A DNA stretch of 64,000 nucleotides. Origin: Dehalococcoidia bacterium. GTDB taxonomy: Bacteria > Chloroflexota > Dehalococcoidia > Lucifugimonadales > UBA6952. The position numbers were made by a program, and so were the translations under genes. Every line of letters starts with the position of its first letter. Position 1 is the stretch's first letter. The notes below the pieces were generated by a model. It was not told where the DNA came from. It was given only the letters and a program-made list of their open reading frames with translations, and ran no database searches. Location: contig JAKUQA010000001.1 in NCBI GenBank assembly GCA_022450525.1, positions 18,897-82,896 of the forward strand, given 5' to 3'. Positions 13,534-48,270 of this stretch are shown one piece after another.

Positions 13534-14823
13534 TTATGATCCTTGGTGGCTACTATACATAACAAAGCCACATGCATCAGGGGTGTTACTTCCTGCTAGA
13601 GCAATTTCAGCTTTAACATTAACTTGTCTTGGTCCAGCAGTTCCTCTCAACTGTTCAATACTATCGCTGTGAAGAGCAGATCTCGTACGACCTGTGCCTA
13701 GATTTCCTCCACTAGATAAAAATGGATGTGGCCCTTCAACTCGTATGTCATCGGCATAAAAGTCATGAGCTTCACCACGCCCTACACCATGCCATTGAAA
13801 ACCTTCAAGGAATTGTTGTGTAAAGGTTGCATATCCATCATATGGATTAAAAATATCTACGTCTTTAATATTAACACCAGAACCTTCTTCCATTTTTCTA
13901 GCTAAACTAGATACAGCTTCTTGATGTTCATCCAATGTTGCCATTGTACTTCTACCACGAACACTATTTTGTGCGTGGTTTAATATATAAACTGGTTTTT
14001 GTCGTAGTTTTTTTGCTTTCTCAGCAGTTGTGAATATGAAAGCTGCACATGCCATAACTGGTCGATCGCAATCATATACAACTAAAGGCTCTTCTACTAC
14101 TCGCCCGTTAAGATAATCCTCTTTAGTCAATTGATATGGTTCATGCAATGAATAATATGACCAAGGAGTAAGTAATCCGTTTCGTCTCTGATTCATTACA
14201 AAAGGTGCCAAAGCTTCATGAGATGTATTATATCTTTGGCAATATTGTTGAAATACTATTGCATTATTAAACATAGCACCAGATTGATAACCCCATGGTA
14301 ATGTAAATGCATTACCGCCCTTAGCTTCATTACTATTATTAGCTGGATTATTATGGCCATAACGTCCAGATAAATTAACCATTGGATACCAACATACTAA
14401 AGTTTCAGCCATTCCATCGCCTACAGCTTGAGCTGCCATACCAAGCATAGGGCCAATATATGGAGCGTCAGATTCAATATATTTTACATTTTTTAACCCT
14501 AATTCTTTTTGAATAAATTCTCCAGAACAGTAGGTCAAGCCATCTTCAGTATCATATGGAGGTGCAAAATATGGACGTGGAGCCCAGGTTTGCTCTGCTC
14601 TTGTTTCTTTACTTGTCATCAATCCATCTATTTCATCAAGGCCAATTCCCGCATCGGAAATGGCTTTTAAAATTGATTCTTTACTTGTGCCACCACATGA
14701 TCTTTCAAGATCGACTCCATCCCATCGACGTTGTATGTATGATTGTCCCCAACCAACAACTGCAACTTTACCCCTATGTTCCCAAAGGCCCATTCCTTCC
14801 TTATCTCTTTGCCAGTTTGCCAT
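13534..14823 (-). CDS. Thiolase-fold (SCP2-thiolase/Ltp-like) protein, divergent
   Basis: Length 429 aa with thiolase-like layout: KVAVVGWG N-terminus, DCDRPVMACAAFIFT, NPYDGYATF and SSGGNLGTGRT. It is paired with a DUF35 gene immediately upstream. Confidence 0.55.
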   Translation of the reverse strand: MANWQRDKEGMGLWEHRGKVAVVGWGQSYIQRRWDGVDLERSCGGTSKESILKAISDAGIGLDEIDGLMTSKETRAEQTWAPRPYFAPPYDTEDGLTYCSGEFIQKELGLKNVKYIESDAPYIGPMLGMAAQAVGDGMAETLVCWYPMVNLSGRYGHNNPANNSNEAKGGNAFTLPWGYQSGAMFNNAIVFQQYCQRYNTSHEALAPFVMNQRRNGLLTPWSYYSLHEPYQLTKEDYLNGRVVEEPLVVYDCDRPVMACAAFIFTTAEKAKKLRQKPVYILNHAQNSVRGRSTMATLDEHQEAVSSLARKMEEGSGVNIKDVDIFNPYDGYATFTQQFLEGFQWHGVGRGEAHDFYADDIRVEGPHPFLSSGGNLGTGRTRSALHSDSIEQLRGTAGPRQVNVKAEIALAGSNTPDACGFVMYSSHQGS

Positions 14824-14892
14824 GACTTAATTCCTTTCTTGTCTAAATATAGCTCTATCTTTTCGATAGGCATATATCTCGTAGTTGTTAAA

Positions 14893-15333
14893 TTATCCTA
14901 TCACTCGCCATTCTGGGACAAGTTGTCGGCCAACTTCCACAGATTCATCAAATATAACTTCAACTGCTGCACCTACAGGTACTTCTCCAGCAGGGGTTCC
15001 TGGAAGATTAGAAAGAAAATTTAACCCAGGATCTTCATCCAACGTTATAATTGCAAAATTTATTGGCTGTGCACCTCTAAATCCTTTAATTCTTGAATCT
15101 TTAATAACCAAATAAACATCAATGTGACCTTTACCTTCAACCTCTTTCCAGCCTAAGGGTTCGGTAGTATCGCATTCATTGCATTTTTCTTTAGGAGGGT
15201 AAATATTGAGGTCACAAGGGCCACAATGTTGTACTACTAGTTTTTTTTCATTAGCTGCATCCCAAAAAGGTTTTGCCCAATCAAATGGAACTGGTACGGG
15301 ACGTTCTAACCCATCTATCATAGACATAATCAT
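14893..15333 (-). CDS. DUF35 protein (zinc-ribbon plus OB-fold)
   Basis: PFWDAANEKKLVVQHCGPCDLNIYPPKEKCNECD is the rubredoxin-like 4-Cys knuckle, followed by an OB-fold-length C-terminus. Confidence 0.75.
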   Translation of the reverse strand: MIMSMIDGLERPVPVPFDWAKPFWDAANEKKLVVQHCGPCDLNIYPPKEKCNECDTTEPLGWKEVEGKGHIDVYLVIKDSRIKGFRGAQPINFAIITLDEDPGLNFLSNLPGTPAGEVPVGAAVEVIFDESVEVGRQLVPEWRVIG

Positions 15334-36008: not shown

Positions 36009-36506
36009 ATGATGGAAACAGATCTTGTAGCTGTTGGTCAAATTTTTTCTATTTTTGGTATTAAAGGCCAAGTTAAAGTTAGGCCTCTTTCTGATGTTGC
36101 GTCTCGGTTTGCCACTGGCAGCAAAATAATATTGAACAACCAAGAAGTATTAATTCAAAAAGCTTCTAAACAAAAGTGGTACTACATATTACTACTAGAT
36201 AACTGCAATACCCCCGAAAAAGCAAAAACACTTAAAGATAAATTTATTTACGTAAAACCTTCACAAACCCCACATCAACAAAATGATACGTATTATTATT
36301 ATGAATTAATCGGTTTGGACGTTTTAAACATTAACCAAGAACATCTAGGCACAATATCTAATATTCTCACTACTGGTGCAAATGATGTCTATGTTATAAC
36401 AAATGATAAAAATGAAGAAATTCTCATACCTGCTATAAAGTCGGTAGTTCTTGAAATAGATATCAAAAATCAAAAAATGACTATAGACCAACCTAGTTGG
36501 CTATAA
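36009..36506 (+). CDS. rimM: 16S rRNA processing protein RimM
   Basis: VGQIFSIFGIKGQVKV, YYYYELIGL, GANDVY and EILIPAI. Confidence 0.88.
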   Translation: MMETDLVAVGQIFSIFGIKGQVKVRPLSDVASRFATGSKIILNNQEVLIQKASKQKWYYILLLDNCNTPEKAKTLKDKFIYVKPSQTPHQQNDTYYYYELIGLDVLNINQEHLGTISNILTTGANDVYVITNDKNEEILIPAIKSVVLEIDIKNQKMTIDQPSWL

Positions 36507-36914
36507 AGGCTCAAACATAGGTACGTGAATTTGATTTGTTGCCTGAACAAATGTTACTTTTACATCCATACCAATTGTGACACTTTTAGGGTCGCAATTA
36601 ATTATATTAGTAAATAATTTAACTCCTTCATCAAGTTCAACTAAAGCTAGTACATACGGAACTTCTTCATTAAACCCTGGAGTCCTATTTTGATAAGTAA
36701 TTGTGTAAGTCCAAACTTTTCCAGTACCTTTAGCCTCAACATAATCTATTTCTTTGGACCAACATCCTGAACAAAATCCTCTGGGATACCATTGATATCC
36801 ACAAGGTTCACAATGCTGAATCATCAAGTGCCCTTTTCTCGCAGCATCCCAAAATTTTCTAGTTTCTCCTGTTATAGTTGGTAAGGGTTTTTTCCATTGA
36901 CTTTGGTTTACCAT
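36501..36914 (-). CDS. DUF35 protein (zinc-ribbon plus OB-fold)
   Basis: FWDAARKGHLMIQHCEPCGYQWYPRGFCSGC. Its start codon directly abuts the stop of the upstream thiolase-fold gene. Confidence 0.8.
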   Translation of the reverse strand: MVNQSQWKKPLPTITGETRKFWDAARKGHLMIQHCEPCGYQWYPRGFCSGCWSKEIDYVEAKGTGKVWTYTITYQNRTPGFNEEVPYVLALVELDEGVKLFTNIINCDPKSVTIGMDVKVTFVQATNQIHVPMFEPL

Positions 36915-38087
36915 TTAATCACCTCCTAGAATAATAGTGCCGCCACTATGCCTATCACCTAACGCGCCACCTGTTCCATGTGCCAGAACGAGATTACAAT
37001 TTTCAACTTGTCTTGGAGTACCTGCAAAATCCCCTCGAAGTTGCCTTGTGGCCTCTATAAGTAAAAACATACCTCTCATACCTGGATGATTCGAAGAAAG
37101 CCCCCCTCCATCAGGATTTAGGGGTAATTCTCCTCCTAATTCAATTCTTCCACCACTTACAAAGTCTCCGCCTTCACCTTTTTTACAGAATCCTAAGTCC
37201 TCTAAAGTTTCAACAACGGTAATTGTAAATGAATCATAAATCATAGCCATGTCTAAATCTTTATGTTTTACTCCTGCCATTTCCATTGCTGGAGCCCCTG
37301 TTTGTGCGGCAGCAATGTTAATCAAATCTCTCTTGCCAGCACCTTGATGTGCTATAGCTTCAGCCATGCCTAAAACCCAGGCAGGCTTAGTTTTACAACT
37401 TCTTGCAACTTCAGGAGAAGCAACAACAACTGCGCCTCCACCATCAGAGATAATACAACAATCATTTAAATGTAAAGGGTCTGAAATAACCCTTGATGCC
37501 AACACATCCTCAACAGTTATGGGATCTCTAAATAATGCATTGGGATTTAATCCAGCATGTTTTCGCATAGCAACTGCAACTTCTGCCAACTGTTCACTTG
37601 TTGTTCCATATTGGTGCATATGTCTTCTAGCAATCATGGCATATAGCCCAACTGTTGTTTTTCCATATAGATCTTCGAAACTTCCTGGTACGGGATCGGA
37701 AAGAGTTGATCCATTTCGAGCAAATCCTCCTGTTCCAACTAATGTGCCAGTCACTCGGGGAGTTGAGGCATATACTATTACAGCACAATTGATTCTTCCT
37801 GCAGCAATAGCAGTTACCGCGTGAGATAAATGAAATTCAAAAGATGCGCCACCAACAGTCGTAAAATCTGCATATTTAGGCTGCATATTAAGATAGTCAA
37901 CCAAATTATATCCACTTAATCCACCAGCACTAAAAATAGCATCTACGTCTTTTTTTTCCAATCCTGCATCTGCTAAAGCCCCGATAATACTTTCTGCCAT
38001 TATTAAAGTTTCACTCTTATCAGGAGCATATCTAACTGGGTGTTCATAAGCACCTACAATTGCAGCCGATTTGCGCAAATCTGTCAT
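36915..38087 (-). CDS. Thiolase-fold protein (SCP2-thiolase/Ltp-like)
   Basis: AAIVGAYEHP, DCCIISDGGGAVVVAS, LNPDGGGLSSNHPGMRGM and AHGTGG. Length 390 aa. Confidence 0.75.
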   Translation of the reverse strand: MTDLRKSAAIVGAYEHPVRYAPDKSETLIMAESIIGALADAGLEKKDVDAIFSAGGLSGYNLVDYLNMQPKYADFTTVGGASFEFHLSHAVTAIAAGRINCAVIVYASTPRVTGTLVGTGGFARNGSTLSDPVPGSFEDLYGKTTVGLYAMIARRHMHQYGTTSEQLAEVAVAMRKHAGLNPNALFRDPITVEDVLASRVISDPLHLNDCCIISDGGGAVVVASPEVARSCKTKPAWVLGMAEAIAHQGAGKRDLINIAAAQTGAPAMEMAGVKHKDLDMAMIYDSFTITVVETLEDLGFCKKGEGGDFVSGGRIELGGELPLNPDGGGLSSNHPGMRGMFLLIEATRQLRGDFAGTPRQVENCNLVLAHGTGGALGDRHSGGTIILGGD

Positions 38088-40429: not shown

Positions 40430-41485
40430 TTGAAAACAAAAGCAGCAGTTCAATTTACCTTAGATGGGCCATTAGAACTTGTCGATTTAGAAGTTCCTGA
40501 TCCCAGTGAAAATCAAGTAATAGTAAAAATGTACTCTAGCGGGGTCTGTCATTCACAACTTCACCAAATGGCAAACCCAAACCTTCCCAGACCACTTGTA
40601 CTTGGCCACGAAGGCACTGGAATTGTTACAAAAACTGGTAAAAATGTTTCTCATGTTTCTGAAGGTGATCATGTAATCGTTACGTGGGTTAAGCGAGTCG
40701 AAACACAAGGATCTATACCTGCCGAACTTACTGGTGCTTCGTATCATGAAACCCCGGTTAATGGAAATGTTTACACTTTAGGTGAAGATGTTTTAACAAA
40801 TAGCGATTATGTGGTACCCATTTCTAAGGAATATCCAACGGATATATCTTGTATTGTTGGATGTGCAGTTTTAACAGGTGCAGGAGCAGTGATAAATACT
40901 GCACAAGTAAAACCTGGTGAATCAGTTGCAGTATTTGGAGTTGGCGGAGTTGGATTATGCGCAATACAGGCAGCTTCTATTAGCAAAGCAAATCCAGTGA
41001 TCGCTGTAGACCTAGATAGTGAAAAATTAAAATTTGCACAAGAATTTGGAGCAACTCATTTAATCAATGCGTCTGAAAATGATCCGATTGAACAAATTAA
41101 AGATATCACAAATGGCGGCGTAGACTATGCCTTCGATGCAATTGGTGTCAAAATCACTAACGAGCAAATTCTTGAATCTACTAGATCAGGTGGTTCTGGA
41201 GCAAATAATCTTGGAGGAACATCTGTGTTAATAGGATTACCACATGGCAATCACACAATGTCCATTCCACCTAGATTATTTGTTGGTGGTCAAAGACTTT
41301 ACAGAGGAAGTTTAGGGGCAACATACCCTGATACCGATTTCCCAATGTTCCTAGATTGGTATAAAAATGGACAATTCCCACTCGACAAACTAATCACCAA
41401 ACGATATAAATTCGATGAGATTAATGAAGCATACGAATCACTATCTAATGGAGAAATTCTTGGTAGATCTATTGTTGTGTATTAG
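40430..41485 (+). CDS. Zinc-dependent alcohol dehydrogenase (MDR family)
   Basis: GVCHSQLH and GHEGTGIV are catalytic-Zn ligands, and GVGGVGL is the Rossmann motif. TTG start behind AAGGAG. The 4-Cys structural-zinc loop appears absent. Confidence 0.8.
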   Translation: MKTKAAVQFTLDGPLELVDLEVPDPSENQVIVKMYSSGVCHSQLHQMANPNLPRPLVLGHEGTGIVTKTGKNVSHVSEGDHVIVTWVKRVETQGSIPAELTGASYHETPVNGNVYTLGEDVLTNSDYVVPISKEYPTDISCIVGCAVLTGAGAVINTAQVKPGESVAVFGVGGVGLCAIQAASISKANPVIAVDLDSEKLKFAQEFGATHLINASENDPIEQIKDITNGGVDYAFDAIGVKITNEQILESTRSGGSGANNLGGTSVLIGLPHGNHTMSIPPRLFVGGQRLYRGSLGATYPDTDFPMFLDWYKNGQFPLDKLITKRYKFDEINEAYESLSNGEILGRSIVVY

Positions 41486-41497
41486 AGAAAGGGAGAT

Positions 41498-42517
41498 ATG
41501 CCAGAAATTTATCCTCTAGAATGGTCAAATGAACGATTAAAAATACTCGACCAAACTAAGCTTCCAAAAGAACAAGCGGTAATTATTGCAAATAATTATG
41601 TTGATGTATTAGATAGTATCAAATCTATGTCAATTAGAGGTGGGTCTGTTCTTAGCATTGCAGCTGCATATGCTTTGACTTTAGCTGCAAAGAGTGTTTC
41701 TACTAATGATGTTCAAAAATTTTTAGAATATCTAGAAAATATCACTTATGAAATTATCAATTCTCGACCATCTATGTCTAGTTTATTGAAAGTCATTGAT
41801 AAAATTTTTGGTAAATTAAGTTCACTCTCAACTGTACAAGAAATGAAAGATTTTGTGCAAAGCGAGGCTGAAAAGATACATAAAGAAGATCTATCTATTA
41901 ACTATCGAATAGCAAATTTCGGTGAAAATCTAATATCTACCGGACAAACAATATTAACTCATGGTAATACTGGAGCACTAGCAACTTCTGGGTATGGCAC
42001 AGCTCTAGGTATAATACGAAAAGCATATGAATCTGGGAAAAAGATTAATGTTATTGTGACAGAAACCCGTCCATTTTTACACGGCGCAAGGCTAACCACA
42101 TGGGAGTTAGTACAACTAGGTATACCAACAAACTTAATTGTTGATTCAGCAGCAGGCTACATGATGGTAAATAAAAAAATTGATTCTATTATTGTAGGAG
42201 CTCAAAGGATAGCGAAAAACGGTGATTTTGCAAATGAAATAGGAACTTACTCACTTAGCGTAATTGCTCAAAACAATAACATCCCATTTTATGTTGCAGC
42301 CCCGACATCAATAATTGATACGGAGTCACCAGACGGGAGTTCTTTCCCGATTGAAGAACGAAACAGGGAAGAAGTTATAAACTTTAATGATTCAGAGATA
42401 TCACCTAAAGCCATCTCAGTATCAAATATAACAACAGACATAACTCCTTGTGAAAATATTTCTGGATTTATTACTGAGTCTGGTATAATATATCCACCAT
42501 TCAATAATACTTATTAA
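41498..42517 (+). CDS. MtnA/eIF-2B-family protein (methylthioribose-1-phosphate-isomerase-like) with non-canonical active-site residues
   Basis: LDQTKLP, THGNTGALATSGYGTALG, ETRPFLHGARLTTWEL, GAQRIAKNGDFANEIGTY and FYVAAPTS. Confidence 0.8.
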   Translation: MPEIYPLEWSNERLKILDQTKLPKEQAVIIANNYVDVLDSIKSMSIRGGSVLSIAAAYALTLAAKSVSTNDVQKFLEYLENITYEIINSRPSMSSLLKVIDKIFGKLSSLSTVQEMKDFVQSEAEKIHKEDLSINYRIANFGENLISTGQTILTHGNTGALATSGYGTALGIIRKAYESGKKINVIVTETRPFLHGARLTTWELVQLGIPTNLIVDSAAGYMMVNKKIDSIIVGAQRIAKNGDFANEIGTYSLSVIAQNNNIPFYVAAPTSIIDTESPDGSSFPIEERNREEVINFNDSEISPKAISVSNITTDITPCENISGFITESGIIYPPFNNTY

Positions 42518-42548: not shown

Positions 42549-42884
42549 ATGAGTTCTAATACAGGCGAACCATTCCAAAGAATCAATATAGACACTGCAA
42601 AGGAGAAAATTGATAGTGAAGAATGTACAATTGTCGATGTTAGACAACAAGACGAATGGGATAGTGGCCATGTGAAAAATGCAATACATATACCAGTTGA
42701 TGAAATTCTTTCAAAAATTGATCAGCTACCTGATTCTGGACCTTTATTGTTCATTTGCGCAGCAGGAGTAAGGAGTGCTTTAGCATGTGAATTGGCAGCA
42801 TCTATGGGTATAGAATCAGAAAGATTGTTTAATATAGAAGAAGGAACTCCGTCCTGGATAGCCAAAGGCTACCCAGCAGAGTAA
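42549..42884 (+). CDS. Single-domain rhodanese sulfurtransferase
   Basis: VDVRQQDEWDSGH and the active-site loop CAAGVRS. Confidence 0.85.
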   Translation: MSSNTGEPFQRINIDTAKEKIDSEECTIVDVRQQDEWDSGHVKNAIHIPVDEILSKIDQLPDSGPLLFICAAGVRSALACELAASMGIESERLFNIEEGTPSWIAKGYPAE

Positions 42885-42909: not shown

Positions 42910-43215
42910 GTGAATAAAACAAAACGCGTATCTTTAATGAAGAGACGAAAAAGATCAAATAAGTTGCAGATAAAGACTAGGTTAGAAAATCCAGTTATAA
43001 AAACCAGAGCCCCTGCACGAACAAATCGTAATGAAATAGTAGAAACTGTCGCAGAAGTTAAAAAACCTGCTGCTACCAAAAAACCTGCTGCTACCAAAAA
43101 AGCAGCTACTACCAAAAAAGCTGCTACTACGAAAAAAACAACTGCGAAAACTACTACTGCGAAAACTACTACTGCGAAAAAAACAACAAAAAAAGAATCG
43201 ACTGATAAGTCTTAG
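42910..43215 (+). CDS. Highly basic Lys/Ala/Thr tandem-repeat protein (histone-H1-like tail)
   Basis: GTG start 5 nt after GAGGT. By my count 32 of 101 residues are K or R. C-terminal repeats: KKPAATKKPAATKKAATTKKAATTKKTTAKTTTAKTTTAKKTTKK. Confidence 0.6.
   Translation: MNKTKRVSLMKRRKRSNKLQIKTRLENPVIKTRAPARTNRNEIVETVAEVKKPAATKKPAATKKAATTKKAATTKKTTAKTTTAKTTTAKKTTKKESTDKS
43060..43176 (+). repeat. Coding tandem repeats: four 18-bp units (AAAAAACCTGCTGCTACC x2 perfect, then two variants) followed by 15-bp units (AAAACTACTACTGCG x2)
   Basis: Read directly. The units begin at 43060, 43078, 43096, 43114, 43132, 43147 and 43162. Confidence 0.9.
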
Positions 43216-43311: not shown

Positions 43312-44580
43312 ATGGCATCTAATATGATAGAAAATGATATCGCAAATCACGAATTATCTAACGTTGGAATTGAAAGAATTAATTGGGCTGCAACAGATAT
43401 GCCTGTACTTAATTCGATTAAAAAACGATTTGATAAAGAAAAACCTTTAAAGGGAATAACAATTGCTGCATGTCTACATGTAACAACAGAAACTGCAAAT
43501 TTAATGATCACCTTACAAAGTGGAGGAGCAAACGTATTACTCTGTGCTAGCAACCCTTTAAGCACACAAGACGACGTTGCTGCAGCATTAGTCAAAGAAT
43601 ATGGTATTTCAACATTTGCAATAAAAGGTGAAGATAATGACACATATTACAAACATATAAAATCCACTCTTTCATCCAAACCTAATATAACTATGGATGA
43701 CGGAGCAGATTTAGTTTCTGTAATACATAACAACCCTAAGGAATACAGTACCTCAATCGTTGGAGGTACTGAGGAAACAACCACTGGAGTTATACGATTA
43801 AAAGCCCTATCTGGTGAAAACAAACTAATATATCCAATTATTGCAGTAAATGAAGCTGCTACTAAACATCTTTTTGACAATCGATACGGAACAGGCCAAA
43901 GCACACTAGACGGAATCACAAGAGCAACAAATATACTTTGGTCTGGCAGAAAAGTTGTAATCGCTGGATATGGATGGTGTGGAAGAGGTATTGCTTCAAG
44001 AGCTAGGGGACTAGGTTCAAATGTTATCGTGACAGAAGTTGATCCTACGAGGGCACTAGAAGCAATAATGGATGGTTTTTCTGTAATGCCTATGGAAGAA
44101 GCTTCCACTATTGGAGATATATTTATAACTGCTACTGGGGGAATAAAAGCAATTGACACAAACCATATGATAAATATGAAAGACGGAGCAATTATAGCTA
44201 ATAGTGGGCATTTTAATGTTGAAATTAATATTCCAGGACTACAAGACATATCTTCATCTTCCAAAGTTACAAGACAATACATCGAACAATTTACTGTACG
44301 AGATAAAAAAATAAATTTACTTGCAGAAGGGCGATTAGTAAATCTTGCCGCTGCTGAAGGACATCCTTCTAGTGTAATGGATATGAGTTTTGCTAATCAG
44401 GCGTTATGCGTAGAACATATAATTAAATTTAGTGAAAAATTATCAATTTCTGTTCATGATGTACCAAAAGAAATAGATGAAGAAATAGGAAGACTCAAAT
44501 TATCCACCATGGGTGTATCTATAGACAATTTAACTCAAGAACAAATTAAATATCTACATAGCTGGACTACAGGAACTTAG
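43312..44580 (+). CDS. ahcY: Adenosylhomocysteinase
   Basis: GTEETTTGV, DNRYGTGQS, the NAD motif GYGWCGRGIA, GHFNVEI and LAEGRLVNLA. Confidence 0.95.
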   Translation: MASNMIENDIANHELSNVGIERINWAATDMPVLNSIKKRFDKEKPLKGITIAACLHVTTETANLMITLQSGGANVLLCASNPLSTQDDVAAALVKEYGISTFAIKGEDNDTYYKHIKSTLSSKPNITMDDGADLVSVIHNNPKEYSTSIVGGTEETTTGVIRLKALSGENKLIYPIIAVNEAATKHLFDNRYGTGQSTLDGITRATNILWSGRKVVIAGYGWCGRGIASRARGLGSNVIVTEVDPTRALEAIMDGFSVMPMEEASTIGDIFITATGGIKAIDTNHMINMKDGAIIANSGHFNVEINIPGLQDISSSSKVTRQYIEQFTVRDKKINLLAEGRLVNLAAAEGHPSSVMDMSFANQALCVEHIIKFSEKLSISVHDVPKEIDEEIGRLKLSTMGVSIDNLTQEQIKYLHSWTTGT

Positions 44581-44592
44581 AAAGAGAGAAAT

Positions 44593-45795
44593 ATGGTATC
44601 TACTTTTAATGATTCAAATAGTTTTTTGTTTACATCTGAATCTGTAACTGAAGGCCATCCAGATAAAGTTTGTGATCAAATATCTGATGCTATTTTAGAC
44701 TCAGTATTAGCGCAAGACCCTAATGCACGAGTAGCATGTGAAACATGTGTAACTACAGGATTAGTAATTATTATGGGTGAGATGACCACTAAAACGTACG
44801 TCGATATTCCTGATATTGTCCGCTCAACACTAAAAAATATTGGATATACTGATGCTGAATTTGGAATAGATTACAACACATGCGGTGTAATGGTTTCAGT
44901 AAAAGAACAATCTCCGGAAATCTCTTCAGCTGTAAGTAAATCTCTTGAAGCACGACAATCCAAAAATGAAAATGAAAATGAAACAATTGGGGCAGGAGAT
45001 CAAGGCATGATGGTAGGGTATGCTTGTAATGAAACTGCTGAACTTATGCCATTGCCAATTTCTCTAGCTCATAAATTAACAAGAAAACTTGCTGAAGTAC
45101 GAAAAAGTTCTACTTTAAATTATTTAAGGCCAGATGGAAAATCTCAGGTTACTGTAGAATATTCACATGGTAAACCTAAAAGAATACACACCATTATTCT
45201 TTCTGCTCAACATAGTCCAGATGTAAAATATGATCAACTAGAAAAAGAATTGCGATCATTTGTAATTGAGCCCATAATACCCAAATCCATGATTGATGAA
45301 TTTACTGAAATAAAAATCAATCCCTCAGGTCTTTTTGTATTAGGAGGACCGAATGCGGATACCGGCCTTACAGGTAGAAAGATTCTAGTGGACACATACG
45401 GTGGAAGCGCTCGTCATGGAGGCGGAGCCTTCTCTGGGAAAGATCCTACAAAGGTTGACAGGTCTGGTGCATACGCAGCAAGGCATGTAGCCAAAAATTT
45501 AGTTGCTGCCGGTATTGCAGAACGAGCTGAAGTGCAAATTTCGTATGCAATTGGTATGGCAAAACCCATATCAGTCAGTGTCGAAACCTTTGGAACATCA
45601 AATCTATCTGATGACAAGATATCTGAAATTGTGAACACATACTTCGATCTTCGGCCCCAGGCTATAATAAATAATATGAATCTCAGAAATCCTATATTTG
45701 GCCCAACAGCTTCATATGGGCATTTTGGTAGAGATGACTTAGATTTACCTTGGGAATCAATTGATATTGCACAATTAATTAAAGAGCATTTGTAG
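44593..45795 (+). CDS. metK: S-adenosylmethionine synthetase
   Basis: [32 protein letters not shown] and [19 protein letters not shown]. Confidence 0.97.
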
Positions 45796-45803
45796 GAGAT
45801 ATT

Positions 45804-47204
45804 TTGGATATCAAATTTGGAACAGATGGCTGGCGTGACATTATGGGCCAAGGATTTAATATTCAAACAGTTAGAGAATGTATTCAAGGTCTATCAAATT
45901 ATTTGATTAATACAAATCAAAATAATAAACCAATTATAGTTGGATACGATACAAGAAAAGATTCTGATTTTTATGCGAAAGAAGTAGCAAAAATATTGAC
46001 TGCCAATTCAATACCCTGTCTCTTATCTGATAAATTTTCACCAACACCTTCTCTTAGTTTTGGTGTAATCGATCAAAATGCAGGTGGGGCTCTAATAGTT
46101 ACTTCAAGCCATAATCCTTATAACTGGAATGGAATAAAATACAAGTCTGAATATGGGGGAAGTGCTTCTTTAGATGTGATTAGACAAGTAGAAAAAGAAA
46201 TATCTAAAGTAAACTCTAATATCGTAACTAAATCTAAAAAATATCTATTATCAACTTTTGATCCAAAACCAAACTATATTGCTAATATAAAAAAATTCGT
46301 TGATTTGGAGTTAATTAATTCATGTAATTTAAATATTCTTGTAGACTATATGTATGGTGCAGGAATAGGTTATTTAGACAACTTCTTTGATAATAATCAA
46401 ACAAGTGTCACTGAATTACATGAACACCCTAACCCATCATTTCCAGGTATGGGCCAGCCAGAACCTATACCAAAAAATCTCGAGAAAATGCAAATACAGC
46501 TATTAGAGAATAATTATGATGTCGGAATTGCTTTTGATGGTGATGCTGATAGACTTGGGCTTTTTGACGGTGAAGGAAATTACATCAATACCATCGAAAC
46601 TTTTGCACTTATTATTTTACATTTATTTGAAAATAAAAAATTATTTGGCGGCATCGTTACTTCTCTAACTATGGGGAGTATATTTACTAAAATAGCTAAA
46701 TATTTCAATGTCCCAATTATAGAAACTGCTGTTGGATTCCCCCACTTATGCAAAGCTATGATTTCTCAAAATGCCCTACTTGCTGGAGAAGAAAGTGGTG
46801 GATATGCCTTTAAATTTCATGTACCTGAAAGGGATGGGATATTAAGTTCGTTACTAATTCTTGAATTATTGGCAACAAGCAAAAAAAGTTTACAACAACT
46901 TAAGGATGAAATGTACGATAAATTTGGAAGAACCTTTTTTGGGAGATCTGATTTAACGTATACAGCAGAACAATCTTCTTTTATTCTTAACAAATTAAAA
47001 AATATAACAATAGAAAATATAGATAATAAAACTATTATATCCACATCTGATACGGATGGTGTTAAATTTTACTTAAAAGATAAATCTTGGGGTACAATAC
47101 GAATTTCAGGAACAGAACCATTAATAAGGATTTATGCTGAATCGAATAGCCAGTATGAGGTTACAAATATAATAAACGAATTAAAAGATTACATATTTTG
47201 TTAG
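45804..47204 (+). CDS. Phosphoglucomutase/phosphomannomutase family protein
   Basis: FGTDGWRD, the active-site loop TSSHNPYNWNGIK, FDGDADR, GEESGG and RISGTEP. Confidence 0.88.
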   Translation: MDIKFGTDGWRDIMGQGFNIQTVRECIQGLSNYLINTNQNNKPIIVGYDTRKDSDFYAKEVAKILTANSIPCLLSDKFSPTPSLSFGVIDQNAGGALIVTSSHNPYNWNGIKYKSEYGGSASLDVIRQVEKEISKVNSNIVTKSKKYLLSTFDPKPNYIANIKKFVDLELINSCNLNILVDYMYGAGIGYLDNFFDNNQTSVTELHEHPNPSFPGMGQPEPIPKNLEKMQIQLLENNYDVGIAFDGDADRLGLFDGEGNYINTIETFALIILHLFENKKLFGGIVTSLTMGSIFTKIAKYFNVPIIETAVGFPHLCKAMISQNALLAGEESGGYAFKFHVPERDGILSSLLILELLATSKKSLQQLKDEMYDKFGRTFFGRSDLTYTAEQSSFILNKLKNITIENIDNKTIISTSDTDGVKFYLKDKSWGTIRISGTEPLIRIYAESNSQYEVTNIINELKDYIFC

Positions 47205-47208
47205 GAGA

Positions 47209-48270
47209 TTGTTGAGGAATTCAGATTATTTAGATCAGTTTAATATATATGACACTTATGATTCCACTAAATATATTCAAAGAATAGCAAATACTACTGA
47301 ATTATTTCAGGATGGAATTAATGCAAAAGATGTTAGTAACATTCTAATTGATCCTAAGATTACATCAATTTACTTTATGGGAATGGGGGGGTCAGGAATT
47401 GGTGGTGATGTATTTATTGATCTAATCAAAGGTCAATTGAAAATACCTATTGAAACAATTAAAACATGGGATATACCTAACTCAATCAATGAAAACACCT
47501 TAGTGTTAATTTGCTCCTACTCAGGAAATACCGAAGAAACAATAAAAATGTTTAATGATTCGATTAATAAAAAGGCTAGTGTAATAATTATTTCACAAGG
47601 AGGAGATTTAACTAACATAGCAAAGCAACAAAAGATTCCTTTAATAAAAATACCCAATATTCTCGAACCAAGAAGTTCCTTAACTTTTGTATTGGGTGCC
47701 CTTATCGCAGTTTTTTCCAAAAATAATTTAATTGATATAAATAACGATCAGATAAATGACTGTCTTAGCATAAACAAAAGCTTGATTGATGGTTTGCAAA
47801 AGCAAATTCCATCTTCCCAAAATCTAGCAAAAAATATAGCCACTAAAATTATAAATACTCTTCCTATTATTATAAGTGCTGACTATCTTTCATCTACAGC
47901 AAATCGATGGAGAACTCAACTAAATGAAAATAGCAAAACAATTGCACTAACAGATAATTTACCTGAAATGTTTCACAATTCTATTGAAGGTTATGAATCA
48001 AAGGTTTTCAGGCAAACAAATCCTTACTTTATCTTACTTACATCAAATTTATATCCTGAACTAGTTATCAAGAAATTTAATCAGCTGAAAAGTTTGTTAA
48101 AGGAACACAATCTGCCATATAGAGAAATAAATGCAGTTGGTAATAATAAACTTAGTCATCTATTTTCTTTATTAACCCTTGGGGATTATATAAGCTATTA
48201 TTTAGCAATAGCTAATAAAATAGATCCTCATCATAACCCTATTATTACAAACTCAAAAAGTAATATTTGA
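47209..48270 (+). CDS. Bifunctional phosphoglucose/phosphomannose isomerase (SIS-domain, archaeal-type PGI/PMI)
   Basis: Two SIS-like halves: GMGGSGIGGD and SYSGNTEET. Length 353 aa. Start is the TTG at 47209 or 47212. Confidence 0.7.
   Translation: MLRNSDYLDQFNIYDTYDSTKYIQRIANTTELFQDGINAKDVSNILIDPKITSIYFMGMGGSGIGGDVFIDLIKGQLKIPIETIKTWDIPNSINENTLVLICSYSGNTEETIKMFNDSINKKASVIIISQGGDLTNIAKQQKIPLIKIPNILEPRSSLTFVLGALIAVFSKNNLIDINNDQINDCLSINKSLIDGLQKQIPSSQNLAKNIATKIINTLPIIISADYLSSTANRWRTQLNENSKTIALTDNLPEMFHNSIEGYESKVFRQTNPYFILLTSNLYPELVIKKFNQLKSLLKEHNLPYREINAVGNNKLSHLFSLLTLGDYISYYLAIANKIDPHHNPIITNSKSNI

Follow-up and report, generated by a model that had tools for sequence, protein, structure and literature searches.

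A 64,000-nucleotide stretch of the genome of a Dehalococcoidia bacterium (assembly GCA_022450525.1, contig JAKUQA010000001.1, positions 18,897 to 82,896 of the forward strand; hereafter the window) encodes a homologue of MtnA, the methylthioribose-1-phosphate (MTR-1-P) isomerase of methionine salvage, in which both catalytic residues have been replaced. We consider this protein to be an MtnA-derived pseudoenzyme that is kept for a non-isomerase and probably binding role, a reading to which we assign a probability of roughly 0.55. To judge from mutants of its homologues, the protein is very probably not a working MTR-1-P isomerase, and we favour a non-catalytic over a newly catalytic protein.

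The product is a full-length member of the MtnA/IF-2B family, as PF01008 matches it with 271.6 bits (E 9.3e-81) over profile positions 2-280 of 280. It passes the MtnA equivalog models TIGR00512 (358.7 bits, cutoff 279) and NF004326 (366.4 bits, cutoff 271), and it fails the ribose-1,5-bisphosphate (R15P) isomerase model TIGR00511 (194.1 bits, cutoff 314.1), the aIF-2B alpha model NF006210 (118 bits, cutoff 339) and NF004994 (38.8 bits, cutoff 249). Matches to the eIF2B chains in the PDB reach just E 1e-20 to 1e-12, and by sequence the protein falls outside the a/eIF2B alpha, beta and delta groups. The AlphaFold2 (AF2) model (predicted local distance difference test, pLDDT, 92.9; predicted template modelling score, pTM, 0.90) superposes on Bacillus subtilis MtnA (2YRF/2YVK; Foldseek) with a template modelling score (TM) of 0.92 and a root-mean-square deviation of 1.9 Å. 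The predicted architecture comprises a helical domain at the N-terminus plus a Rossmann-like domain at the C-terminus, and the N-terminal sheet that is typical of M1Pi is present.

Catalytic positions were read from HMMER alignments against four solved MtnA structures (Thermotoga maritima 1T9K, Archaeoglobus fulgidus 1T5O, B. subtilis 2YRF and Pyrococcus horikoshii 6A34). Residues 7-332 align with 2YRF without gaps, and the motifs that should hold the catalytic Cys and Asp read T-H-G-N-T (residues 154-158) and G-A-Q-R-I (residues 234-238). The original prediction, made from the letters alone, had placed a 339-amino-acid (aa) open reading frame (ORF) here with Gly156 and Gln236 at these two positions; translation reproduces the ORF and both codons (Table 1), and the alignments together with the superposition establish the correspondence. 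An alternative register with Cys and Asp at the catalytic positions is not plausible in view of the fit of the AF2 model to 2YRF/2YVK. A relocated catalytic Cys was also rejected: the protein has a single Cys, Cys318, and most clade members carry Tyr or His in its place.

A homologue search over 5.8 billion proteins placed the window protein in a compact clade. It comprises about ten clusters, formed at 90% identity, that are 78-99% identical, the next matches being only ~52% identical. All of these clusters carry H-G-N and all carry G-A-Q-R, save one with G-A-H-R. The variant motifs were kept in each of 28 further cluster members that were read (28/28), which come from independent samples. 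The clade derives from ocean metagenomes, Tara Oceans assemblies and NCBI genome assemblies, and every full-length member read has an uninterrupted ORF. When clade member P0009 served as query, a second search for homologues returned no new cluster between 52% and 78% identity, and a metagenome scan for additional members gained solely P0009-type loci. The GC content of the window (32-37%) fits the genome-streamlined euphotic SAR202, which have genomes of <2 Mbp and <40% GC (PMC11994032). Methionine salvage and polyamine synthesis are reported to be prevalent in deep-ocean SAR202 and absent from euphotic SAR202 (PMC11245477). Public records (NCBI, JGI) nevertheless label the clade proteins S-methyl-5-thioribose-1-phosphate isomerase from the SAR202 cluster or Dehalococcoidia (e.g., MQG84956.1, MCH2522054.1), an annotation that is probably wrong for the window protein.

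Outside the clade, these positions hardly vary. Among the 110 nearest relatives, Cys occupies position 156 in 107, and Asp at 236 and Lys at 247 occur in all (110/110), Lys247 being Glu in every clade member. The combination C/Q/D/K at 156/195/236/247 was found in 146 of 150 diverse 50%-identity cluster representatives. The catalytic Cys motif, which had been described as usually invariant, is thus near-general rather than strictly so, as three otherwise canonical relatives have Gly or Ser instead. In the 110 nearest canonical relatives, 96 positions reach a conservation of at least 95%; 75 of them are unchanged in the clade, and the replacements concentrate in substrate-contact motifs. In B. 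subtilis numbering, the clade has Gly for Cys160, His for Gln199, Gln or His for Asp240, Glu for Lys251 and Lys or Arg for Ala244, and Glu263 is variable. RGAPAIG reads RG[G/L/V]S[V/I][L/I][S/G] across the clade, RPTAVN reads RPS[M/V]xS and NPAFD reads NITTD. The loss of Cys and Asp and the change of RGAPAIG to RGGSVLS had been seen correctly from the sequence; that list was incomplete, in that Gln199, Lys251, RPTAVN and NPAFD have been replaced as well.

The replaced residues include those on which activity depends in homologous enzymes. In P. horikoshii R15P isomerase, the 1-phosphate is bound by Arg22, Arg65, Gln166 and Lys215, the sugar is contacted by Asp204, Asn214 and Lys215, and the C135S and D204N mutants have no activity (PMC5789824). 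In human MRI1, C168S and D248A each abolish activity singly, in vitro and in cells (PMC2758758). When conserved motifs and offsets in the alignment are used to map the R15P isomerase ligands onto the window protein, two of the four residues that bind the 1-phosphate are retained (Arg47 and Arg90) and two are replaced (Gln by His195, Lys by Glu247). Asn246 is retained. With the catalytic residues and two phosphate ligands lost, isomerisation of MTR-1-P is therefore most likely impossible.

Table 1. Features of the MtnA-like gene and its surroundings, with positions counted in the window.
Feature	Position	Strand	Evidence
MtnA-like gene, IF-2B/MtnA fold, positional orthologue of mtnA	41498..42517	+	Hidden Markov model (HMM) scores, AF2, synteny
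Gly156, codon GGT, catalytic Cys position (B. subtilis Cys160, human Cys168)	41963..41965	+	HMMER alignment to MtnA structures
Gln236, codon CAA, catalytic Asp position (B. subtilis Asp240, human Asp248)	42203..42205	+	HMMER alignment to MtnA structures
His195, codon CAC, at invariant Gln of RPxLQG (B. subtilis Gln199; P. horikoshii R15P isomerase Gln166)	42080..42082	+	Comparison with relatives; ligand role PMC5789824
Glu247, codon GAA, at invariant Lys of ANKIGTY (B. subtilis Lys251; R15P isomerase Lys215)	42236..42238	+	Comparison with relatives
R47-G-G-S-V-L-S53 in place of invariant RGAPAIG anion/backbone-binding loop; Arg47 and Gly48 retained	41636..41656	+	Comparison with relatives
R90-P-S-M-S-S95 in place of RPTAVN; Arg90 retained	41765..41782	+	Comparison with relatives
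N310-I-T-T-D314 in place of NPAFD	42425..42439	+	Comparison with relatives
Shine-Dalgarno-like purine-rich AAGGGAG, in the 12-nt gap between alcohol dehydrogenase (ADH) gene and ATG	41489..41495	+	Sequence reading
Zn-dependent ADH (class I/III-like), 12 nt upstream of the MtnA-like gene	40430..41485	+	Profile matches, synteny
Single-domain rhodanese, directly after the MtnA-like gene; mtnP intervenes in canonical relatives	42549..42884	+	Pfam, synteny
Small basic protein, Lys/Ala/Thr-rich tandem repeats, conserved cluster member	42910..43215	+	Sequence reading, synteny
ahcY, metK, PGM/PMM-family mutase and PGI/PMI, remainder of the co-directional cluster, which meets rpsI head-to-tail	43312..48270	+	Pfam, NCBIfam, synteny

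Gene order ties the window gene to canonical mtnA. In the clade, groEL/groES on the opposite strand are followed by ADH, the MtnA-like gene, rhodanese, the small basic protein, ahcY, metK, PGM/PMM and PGI/PMI, and then by rpsI-rplM-truA-rplQ-rpoA, again on the opposite strand. Canonical C/Q/D/K relatives from higher-GC Dehalococcoidia with larger genomes (loci L020, L105, L107 and L044) have mtnA, PNP_UDP_1, rhodanese, a hypothetical gene, in some cases PfkB, and then ahcY, metK and PGM before rpsI. As it occupies the same slot in the rhodanese-ahcY-metK-PGM-rpsI cluster as canonical mtnA, the window gene is its positional orthologue. The start of the PNP gene overlaps the end of mtnA in canonical relatives, and this gene opens with GGSG and RHG motifs, which we take to be typical of methylthioadenosine (MTA) phosphorylase; we read it as mtnP. 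MTA phosphorylase supplies the substrate of MtnA.

In this low-GC lineage the cluster has lost both mtnP and pfkB. A tblastn search of the whole window and of four related loci (L001, L010, L011 and L014) gave no homologue of PNP or PfkB. When the window ORFs at 1.5-33 kb and 40-48 kb were scanned with Pfam, neither Aldolase_II, RuBisCO-like or ARD domains nor an MtnK-type kinase turned up; ORFs at 33-40 kb were named via the annotation of the syntenic locus L010, and the ribosomal cluster at 48-64 kb was covered by the tblastn search only. Genes for substrate supply (mtnP, or mtnN with mtnK), downstream salvage and the dihydroxyacetone phosphate shunt were found neither in the scanned parts of the window nor within the flanks (+/-10 kb) of related loci. 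The orthologues that carry the Gly/Gln pair form a clade with conserved neighbours, and the Zn-ADH 12 nt upstream and the rhodanese, ahcY and metK genes downstream are where the original prediction had put them. The sulfur and methyl-cycle context that it named gives no hint of a new function; it is ancestral synteny that is common to canonical mtnA. The informative part of the context is the absence of the mtnP that follows mtnA in relatives, and the ADH is the only neighbour that is new in the clade.

Pairwise Nei-Gojobori estimates show that the gene is under purifying selection. The dN/dS of the MtnA-like gene is 0.10-0.15, including pairs at a dS of about 0.9-1.2, beside 0.04-0.09 for ADH, 0.07-0.11 for rhodanese, 0.05-0.075 for both ahcY (0.06-0.07 by gene) and metK, and 0.13-0.15 for PGM. 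It is highly likely that the gene is functional. The original prediction had offered a pseudoenzyme, a ligand binder or an enzyme with different chemistry, and this set of options was well chosen, in that the protein is maintained by selection. Divergence from the canonical relatives, scaled to their own, is 1.83 for the MtnA-like gene, 1.84 for rhodanese, 1.71 for metK, 2.88 for PGM and 1.47 for ahcY. An acceleration of the whole protein after loss of function was rejected on these values, as its scaled divergence is ordinary beside that of its neighbours.

Selection differs between classes of sites, which we partitioned across the deepest split of the clade. The 51 retained family-invariant sites show 0 non-synonymous and 23-28 synonymous differences, compared with an omega of 0.28-0.44 at the 16 replaced, formerly invariant sites, and the old catalytic sites are therefore relaxed. 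By region, omega is 0.06-0.12 in the N-terminal sheet, 0.16-0.19 in the helical domain and 0.09-0.13 in the Rossmann-like domain. The scaffold is thus frozen, and some of the highest rates of change in the protein fall on the former catalytic and ligand positions. Within the clade, position 49 is G (as in the window protein), L (in the majority subclade) or V, and position 259 is N, D, Q, K or E, whereas Glu247 and a basic residue (Lys or Arg) at position 240 are fixed. The P0009 lineage retains Gln at position 195 and is polymorphic at position 236, where His (CAT) and Gln (CAA) occur in sequences that are 99% identical. The idea that exactly one His is needed, at either 195 or 236 (H195/Q236 versus Q195/H236), was rejected, as both positions are Gln in the loci L023 and L024, whose sequences are 99% identical to P0009.

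These codons also leave hardly any room for an artefact of sequencing, assembly or frame, for which we found nothing in favour and which we regard as practically negligible: the motifs recur in about ten clusters and 28 further members from JGI, ENA, Logan, Tara and NCBI assemblies, and the codon of Gly156 varies synonymously among clade loci (GGT, GGC and GGA). A sequencing error or a pseudogene was rejected on the many independent assemblies, the synonymous Gly codons and the dN/dS. The earlier argument that Asp to Gln takes two steps, and is not a single-base error, is strengthened by the earliest-branching lineage, which still contains the intermediate His (CAT) between Asp (GAC in relatives) and Gln (CAA).

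Active-site erosion of an MtnA orthologue has occurred a second time. A further marine clade (P0202 and P0352-P0354; L103:10001-11083, L104:5593-6675 and L106:2062-3162) has S/E/D/L at 156/195/236/247, P0202 being one of the exceptions among the 150 diverse cluster representatives. It comes from marine Dehalococcoidia with 45-47% GC, and its nearest canonical relatives are 57% identical, compared with 45-46% identity to the window clade. Like the window clade, it occupies the equivalent syntenic locus without mtnP, has lost the Cys, has both phosphate ligands Gln and Lys replaced, carries Pro54 to Ser and Asn99 to Ser, and is under purifying selection (dN/dS 0.085 at dS 1.06). Unlike the window clade, it has an independent origin, keeps the Asp and pfkB, has lost Arg90 (to Asn) and His155 (to Met or Phe), and has no ADH neighbour.

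In addition, the Cys has been lost in three otherwise near-canonical relatives among the 173 nearest, being Gly in P0011 and P0024 and Ser in P0012. Each of these sequences (P0011, L017:10001-11116; P0012, L022:5428-6531; P0024, L018:4917-6017) also departs from the invariant pattern at one to three more positions; in P0011, for instance, GADR reads GADH. The mtnP gene next to mtnA is gone in P0011 and P0012 and still present in P0024. In a simple neighbour-joining tree without bootstraps, the three fall in two separate spots away from the window clade, and they may represent early stages of the same erosion. At this locus, the Cys is gone in every lineage without mtnP (the window clade, P0011, P0012 and the P0202 clade) and kept in four of the five lineages with mtnP, an association that is only suggestive (one-sided Fisher p about 0.04-0.07, in a tally of 8-9 lineages). 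Two further 50%-identity cluster representatives have A/Q/Y/R (P0259) and S/E/C/D (P0307) at the four positions, a hint that erosion of MtnA homologues is also found, sporadically, beyond SAR202.

In the scenario that we propose, the gene is the direct orthologue of mtnA, which encodes the MTR-1-P isomerase of methionine salvage, in a streamlined, low-GC marine SAR202/Dehalococcoidia lineage. Here mtnP and pfkB were deleted from the cluster, and the MtnA-like protein lost the Cys, the Asp and two of the four 1-phosphate ligands. Isomerisation of MTR-1-P has most likely ceased, its substrate supply being absent by the local evidence. Strong purifying selection has nevertheless preserved the protein, which is presumably expressed, and has frozen the two-domain fold and the majority of the invariant scaffold residues. 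The protein would most likely act via binding rather than turnover, possibly through an anion-binding cleft that may persist around Arg47, Arg90, Asn246 and the surrounding loops. Orthology, the residue losses, the loss of the adjoining mtnP, selection and recurrence in another clade are observed, and from these we infer inactivity and a binding or regulatory role.

The main competitor of this scenario is an enzyme with a new activity, which we consider possible but rather unlikely. The remodelled cleft (Gly156, His195, Gln236, Glu247, Lys240, Ser50/92/95 and Thr312/313) would run a different reaction, which could be the isomerisation or other conversion of a sugar without a 1-phosphate or of another sugar phosphate, perhaps together with the upstream ADH. 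A catalytic carboxylate might have moved to Glu247, which faces position 236 over a predicted beta-hairpin; DSSP strands at 237-239 and 244-247 suggest that 236 and 247 are cross-strand neighbours, a geometry deduced from secondary structure. The strong purifying selection agrees with such an enzyme, and several other observations favour it and weigh against a pseudoenzyme. The 75 intact invariant positions include the cleft loops THxN, ETRP, NGD and GT and would also fit an enzyme of altered specificity. No member departs from Glu247 or from the new basic residue at 240, and some constraint persists at the 16 replaced sites (omega <0.5). The ADH, whose adjacency is clade-specific and whose 12-nt gap is equal across the deepest split of the clade, could mark a new two-step pathway. 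Three further points bear on the pseudoenzyme directly: its inactivity would follow from mutants of homologues, mtnP, mtnK or a second mtnA may lie elsewhere in the genome, beyond the 64-kb window, and P0024 keeps mtnP without the Cys, so that loss of the Cys may precede loss of the pathway or the subfamily may depend less on the Cys.

However, tuning is not what most replaced positions show, as exemplified by the three residues at 49, the five at 259 and the His/Gln polymorphism at 236 between sequences of 99% identity. No His is required, given Gln at both 195 and 236 in L023 and L024, and the omega of the replaced sites is 2-4 times the gene average. The protein has no conserved thiol and no obvious second acid/base, and the S/E/D/L of the second clade, which also lacks Arg90 and His155, does not converge on a new constellation. 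The replaced positions are relaxed and drift, and the second clade did not converge on a common set of new residues; both observations speak against a new active site that has been finely tuned. The other cleft loops and the two arginines, in contrast, are absolutely conserved, which indicates a cleft that continues to be used. Relaxed replaced sites around a conserved cleft therefore favour binding, of a metabolite or a partner, over catalysis.

It is quite improbable that the protein is still the annotated MTR-1-P isomerase, working with other residues or by another mechanism. Its scores above the TIGR00512 and NF004326 cutoffs, its name in public records and the three otherwise canonical relatives without the Cys, one of them with mtnP adjoining, would be expected in that case. 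Either single substitution kills activity in human MRI1 and in R15P isomerases, though, and here neither residue is left and the phosphate ligands Gln and Lys have changed as well. Moreover, mtnP is gone from the cluster, no salvage gene was found in the scanned parts of the window, and the pathway is reported absent from euphotic SAR202 (PMC11245477).

A functionless relic of salvage on its way to loss is equally improbable. The pathway partner has been lost, the catalytic and ligand residues are eroded, the former catalytic sites are relaxed, and several relatives show like erosion. Against this, dN/dS stays at 0.10-0.15 over a dS >1 with zero amino-acid changes at the 51 invariant sites, the ORF is intact in all full-length members read, and the second clade is equally constrained. 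The gene has been kept in streamlined genomes of 1-2 Mbp that removed mtnP, pfkB and, in the P0009 lineage, ahcY. In that lineage the MtnA-like gene, rhodanese and metK are intact despite a broken ahcY. We count the persistence of the MtnA-like gene in a streamlined genome, while adjacent genes including ahcY were deleted, in favour of a retained pseudoenzyme.

Enzymes of this family have lost catalysis before. The window protein resembles B. subtilis MtnA (2YRF/2YVK) and T. maritima MtnA (1T9K) in family, length and two-domain fold (40-42% identity, TM 0.90-0.92), and differs from bacterial MtnA/M1Pi in its missing catalytic Cys and Asp and phosphate-site Gln and Lys, in its altered RGAPAIG, RPTAVN and NPAFD motifs, and in having no adjoining mtnP. 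R15P isomerases (Thermococcus kodakarensis 3A11, P. horikoshii 5YFJ) share a homologous fold and active-site positions, and in them the essential role of Cys and Asp has been proven by mutation. The window protein reaches a TM of only 0.6-0.8 to these structures, has no RuBisCO or AMP-phosphorylase context and lacks the catalytic pair.

The precedent within PF01008 for an enzyme fold that turned into a non-catalytic binder or regulator is given by the eIF2B alpha, beta and delta subunits and aIF2B. In a/eIF2B members the catalytic Cys became Ala or Gly and the 1-phosphate ligands are gone, while the old pocket of eIF2B-alpha still binds sugar phosphates and AMP/GMP (PMC5789824, PMC4787765). 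Like the eIF2B subunits, the window protein has lost its catalytic residues and retained the fold and part of the pocket. This is a resemblance in kind and not membership, as the window protein arose independently within the bacterial MtnA branch and kept the M1Pi-type N-terminal sheet; to our knowledge, bacteria have no eIF2 partner. A second precedent is human MRI1 (MRDI), a true MtnA with a catalysis-independent second role, whose inactive C168S and D248A mutants still promote cell invasion (PMC2758758). It illustrates that the scaffold can bear a non-enzymatic job, although MRI1, unlike the window protein, still has the catalytic residues, and the second role it plays is confined to eukaryotic signalling.

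Several observations concern the surroundings of the gene. Profile comparison of the ADH gave only generic similarity to class I/III Zn-ADHs, below every equivalog cutoff. The small basic ORF (42910-43215, +) has a GTG start, encodes 101 aa with an N-terminal motif NKxKRV..(M/L)K.R and has no Pfam match. Its Lys/Ala/Thr-rich C-terminus, of histone-H1-like composition, stems from 15- and 18-nt tandem repeats (43060-43187). An ORF is present at this position in all relatives, with the N-terminal motif common by eye and a repeat part that diverges fast; tblastn of the protein against the sister copies gave no sequence match. In the P0009 lineage, all that is left of ahcY, between metK and the gene of the small basic protein, is a broken N-terminal fragment of ~64 codons (L023:11850-12000, L024, L025:3720-3884 and L026:1573-1764). 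The PGM/PMM-family mutase (45804-47204, +) has 41-43% identity to Dehalococcoidia orthologues that are themselves 72-77% identical, and its top NCBIfam match, below cutoff, is an archaeal-type GlmM; its specificity may have changed. A promoter and terminator scan of 39.8-48.5 kb gave counts no higher than the shuffled expectation. Elsewhere, the window has two pairs of a thiolase-like (Thiolase_C_1) and a DUF35/ChsH2 OB-fold protein (13534-15333 and 36501-38087, both -), the first named from Pfam scans of the window and the second after the annotation of the syntenic locus L010.

In the literature, our searches met with no account of a bacterial orthologue of MtnA that is under selection despite the loss of its catalytic residues, and with no paper on an MtnA pseudoenzyme. 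Non-catalytic PF01008 members are well known in eukaryotes and archaea. As the protein passes the equivalog cutoff, PGAP- and IMG-type pipelines call it S-methyl-5-thioribose-1-phosphate isomerase. Metabolic reconstructions would consequently credit the abundant euphotic SAR202 with a salvage step that is very probably absent. The locus also offers a clean and datable natural example of the path from enzyme to pseudoenzyme, as it combines the ancestral state, an Asp to His to Gln intermediate, loss of the partner gene and an independent replicate at one syntenic position, in the very fold that yielded the eIF2B regulatory subunits. Genes retained in streamlined genomes of 1-2 Mbp are usually needed, and a conserved dead enzyme points to an unrecognised function of the MtnA scaffold. 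Tentatively, MtnA might have a second, catalysis-independent function in SAR202/Dehalococcoidia that alone kept the gene after methionine salvage was lost, at least two marine lineages having independently converted the enzyme to a binder of a metabolite or partner. If true, this would be a recent bacterial replay of the transition from enzyme to regulator that lies behind the eIF2B alpha, beta and delta subunits, and one possible role would be the sensing of an S-adenosylmethionine-derived or sugar-phosphate metabolite for the co-encoded methyl-cycle genes.

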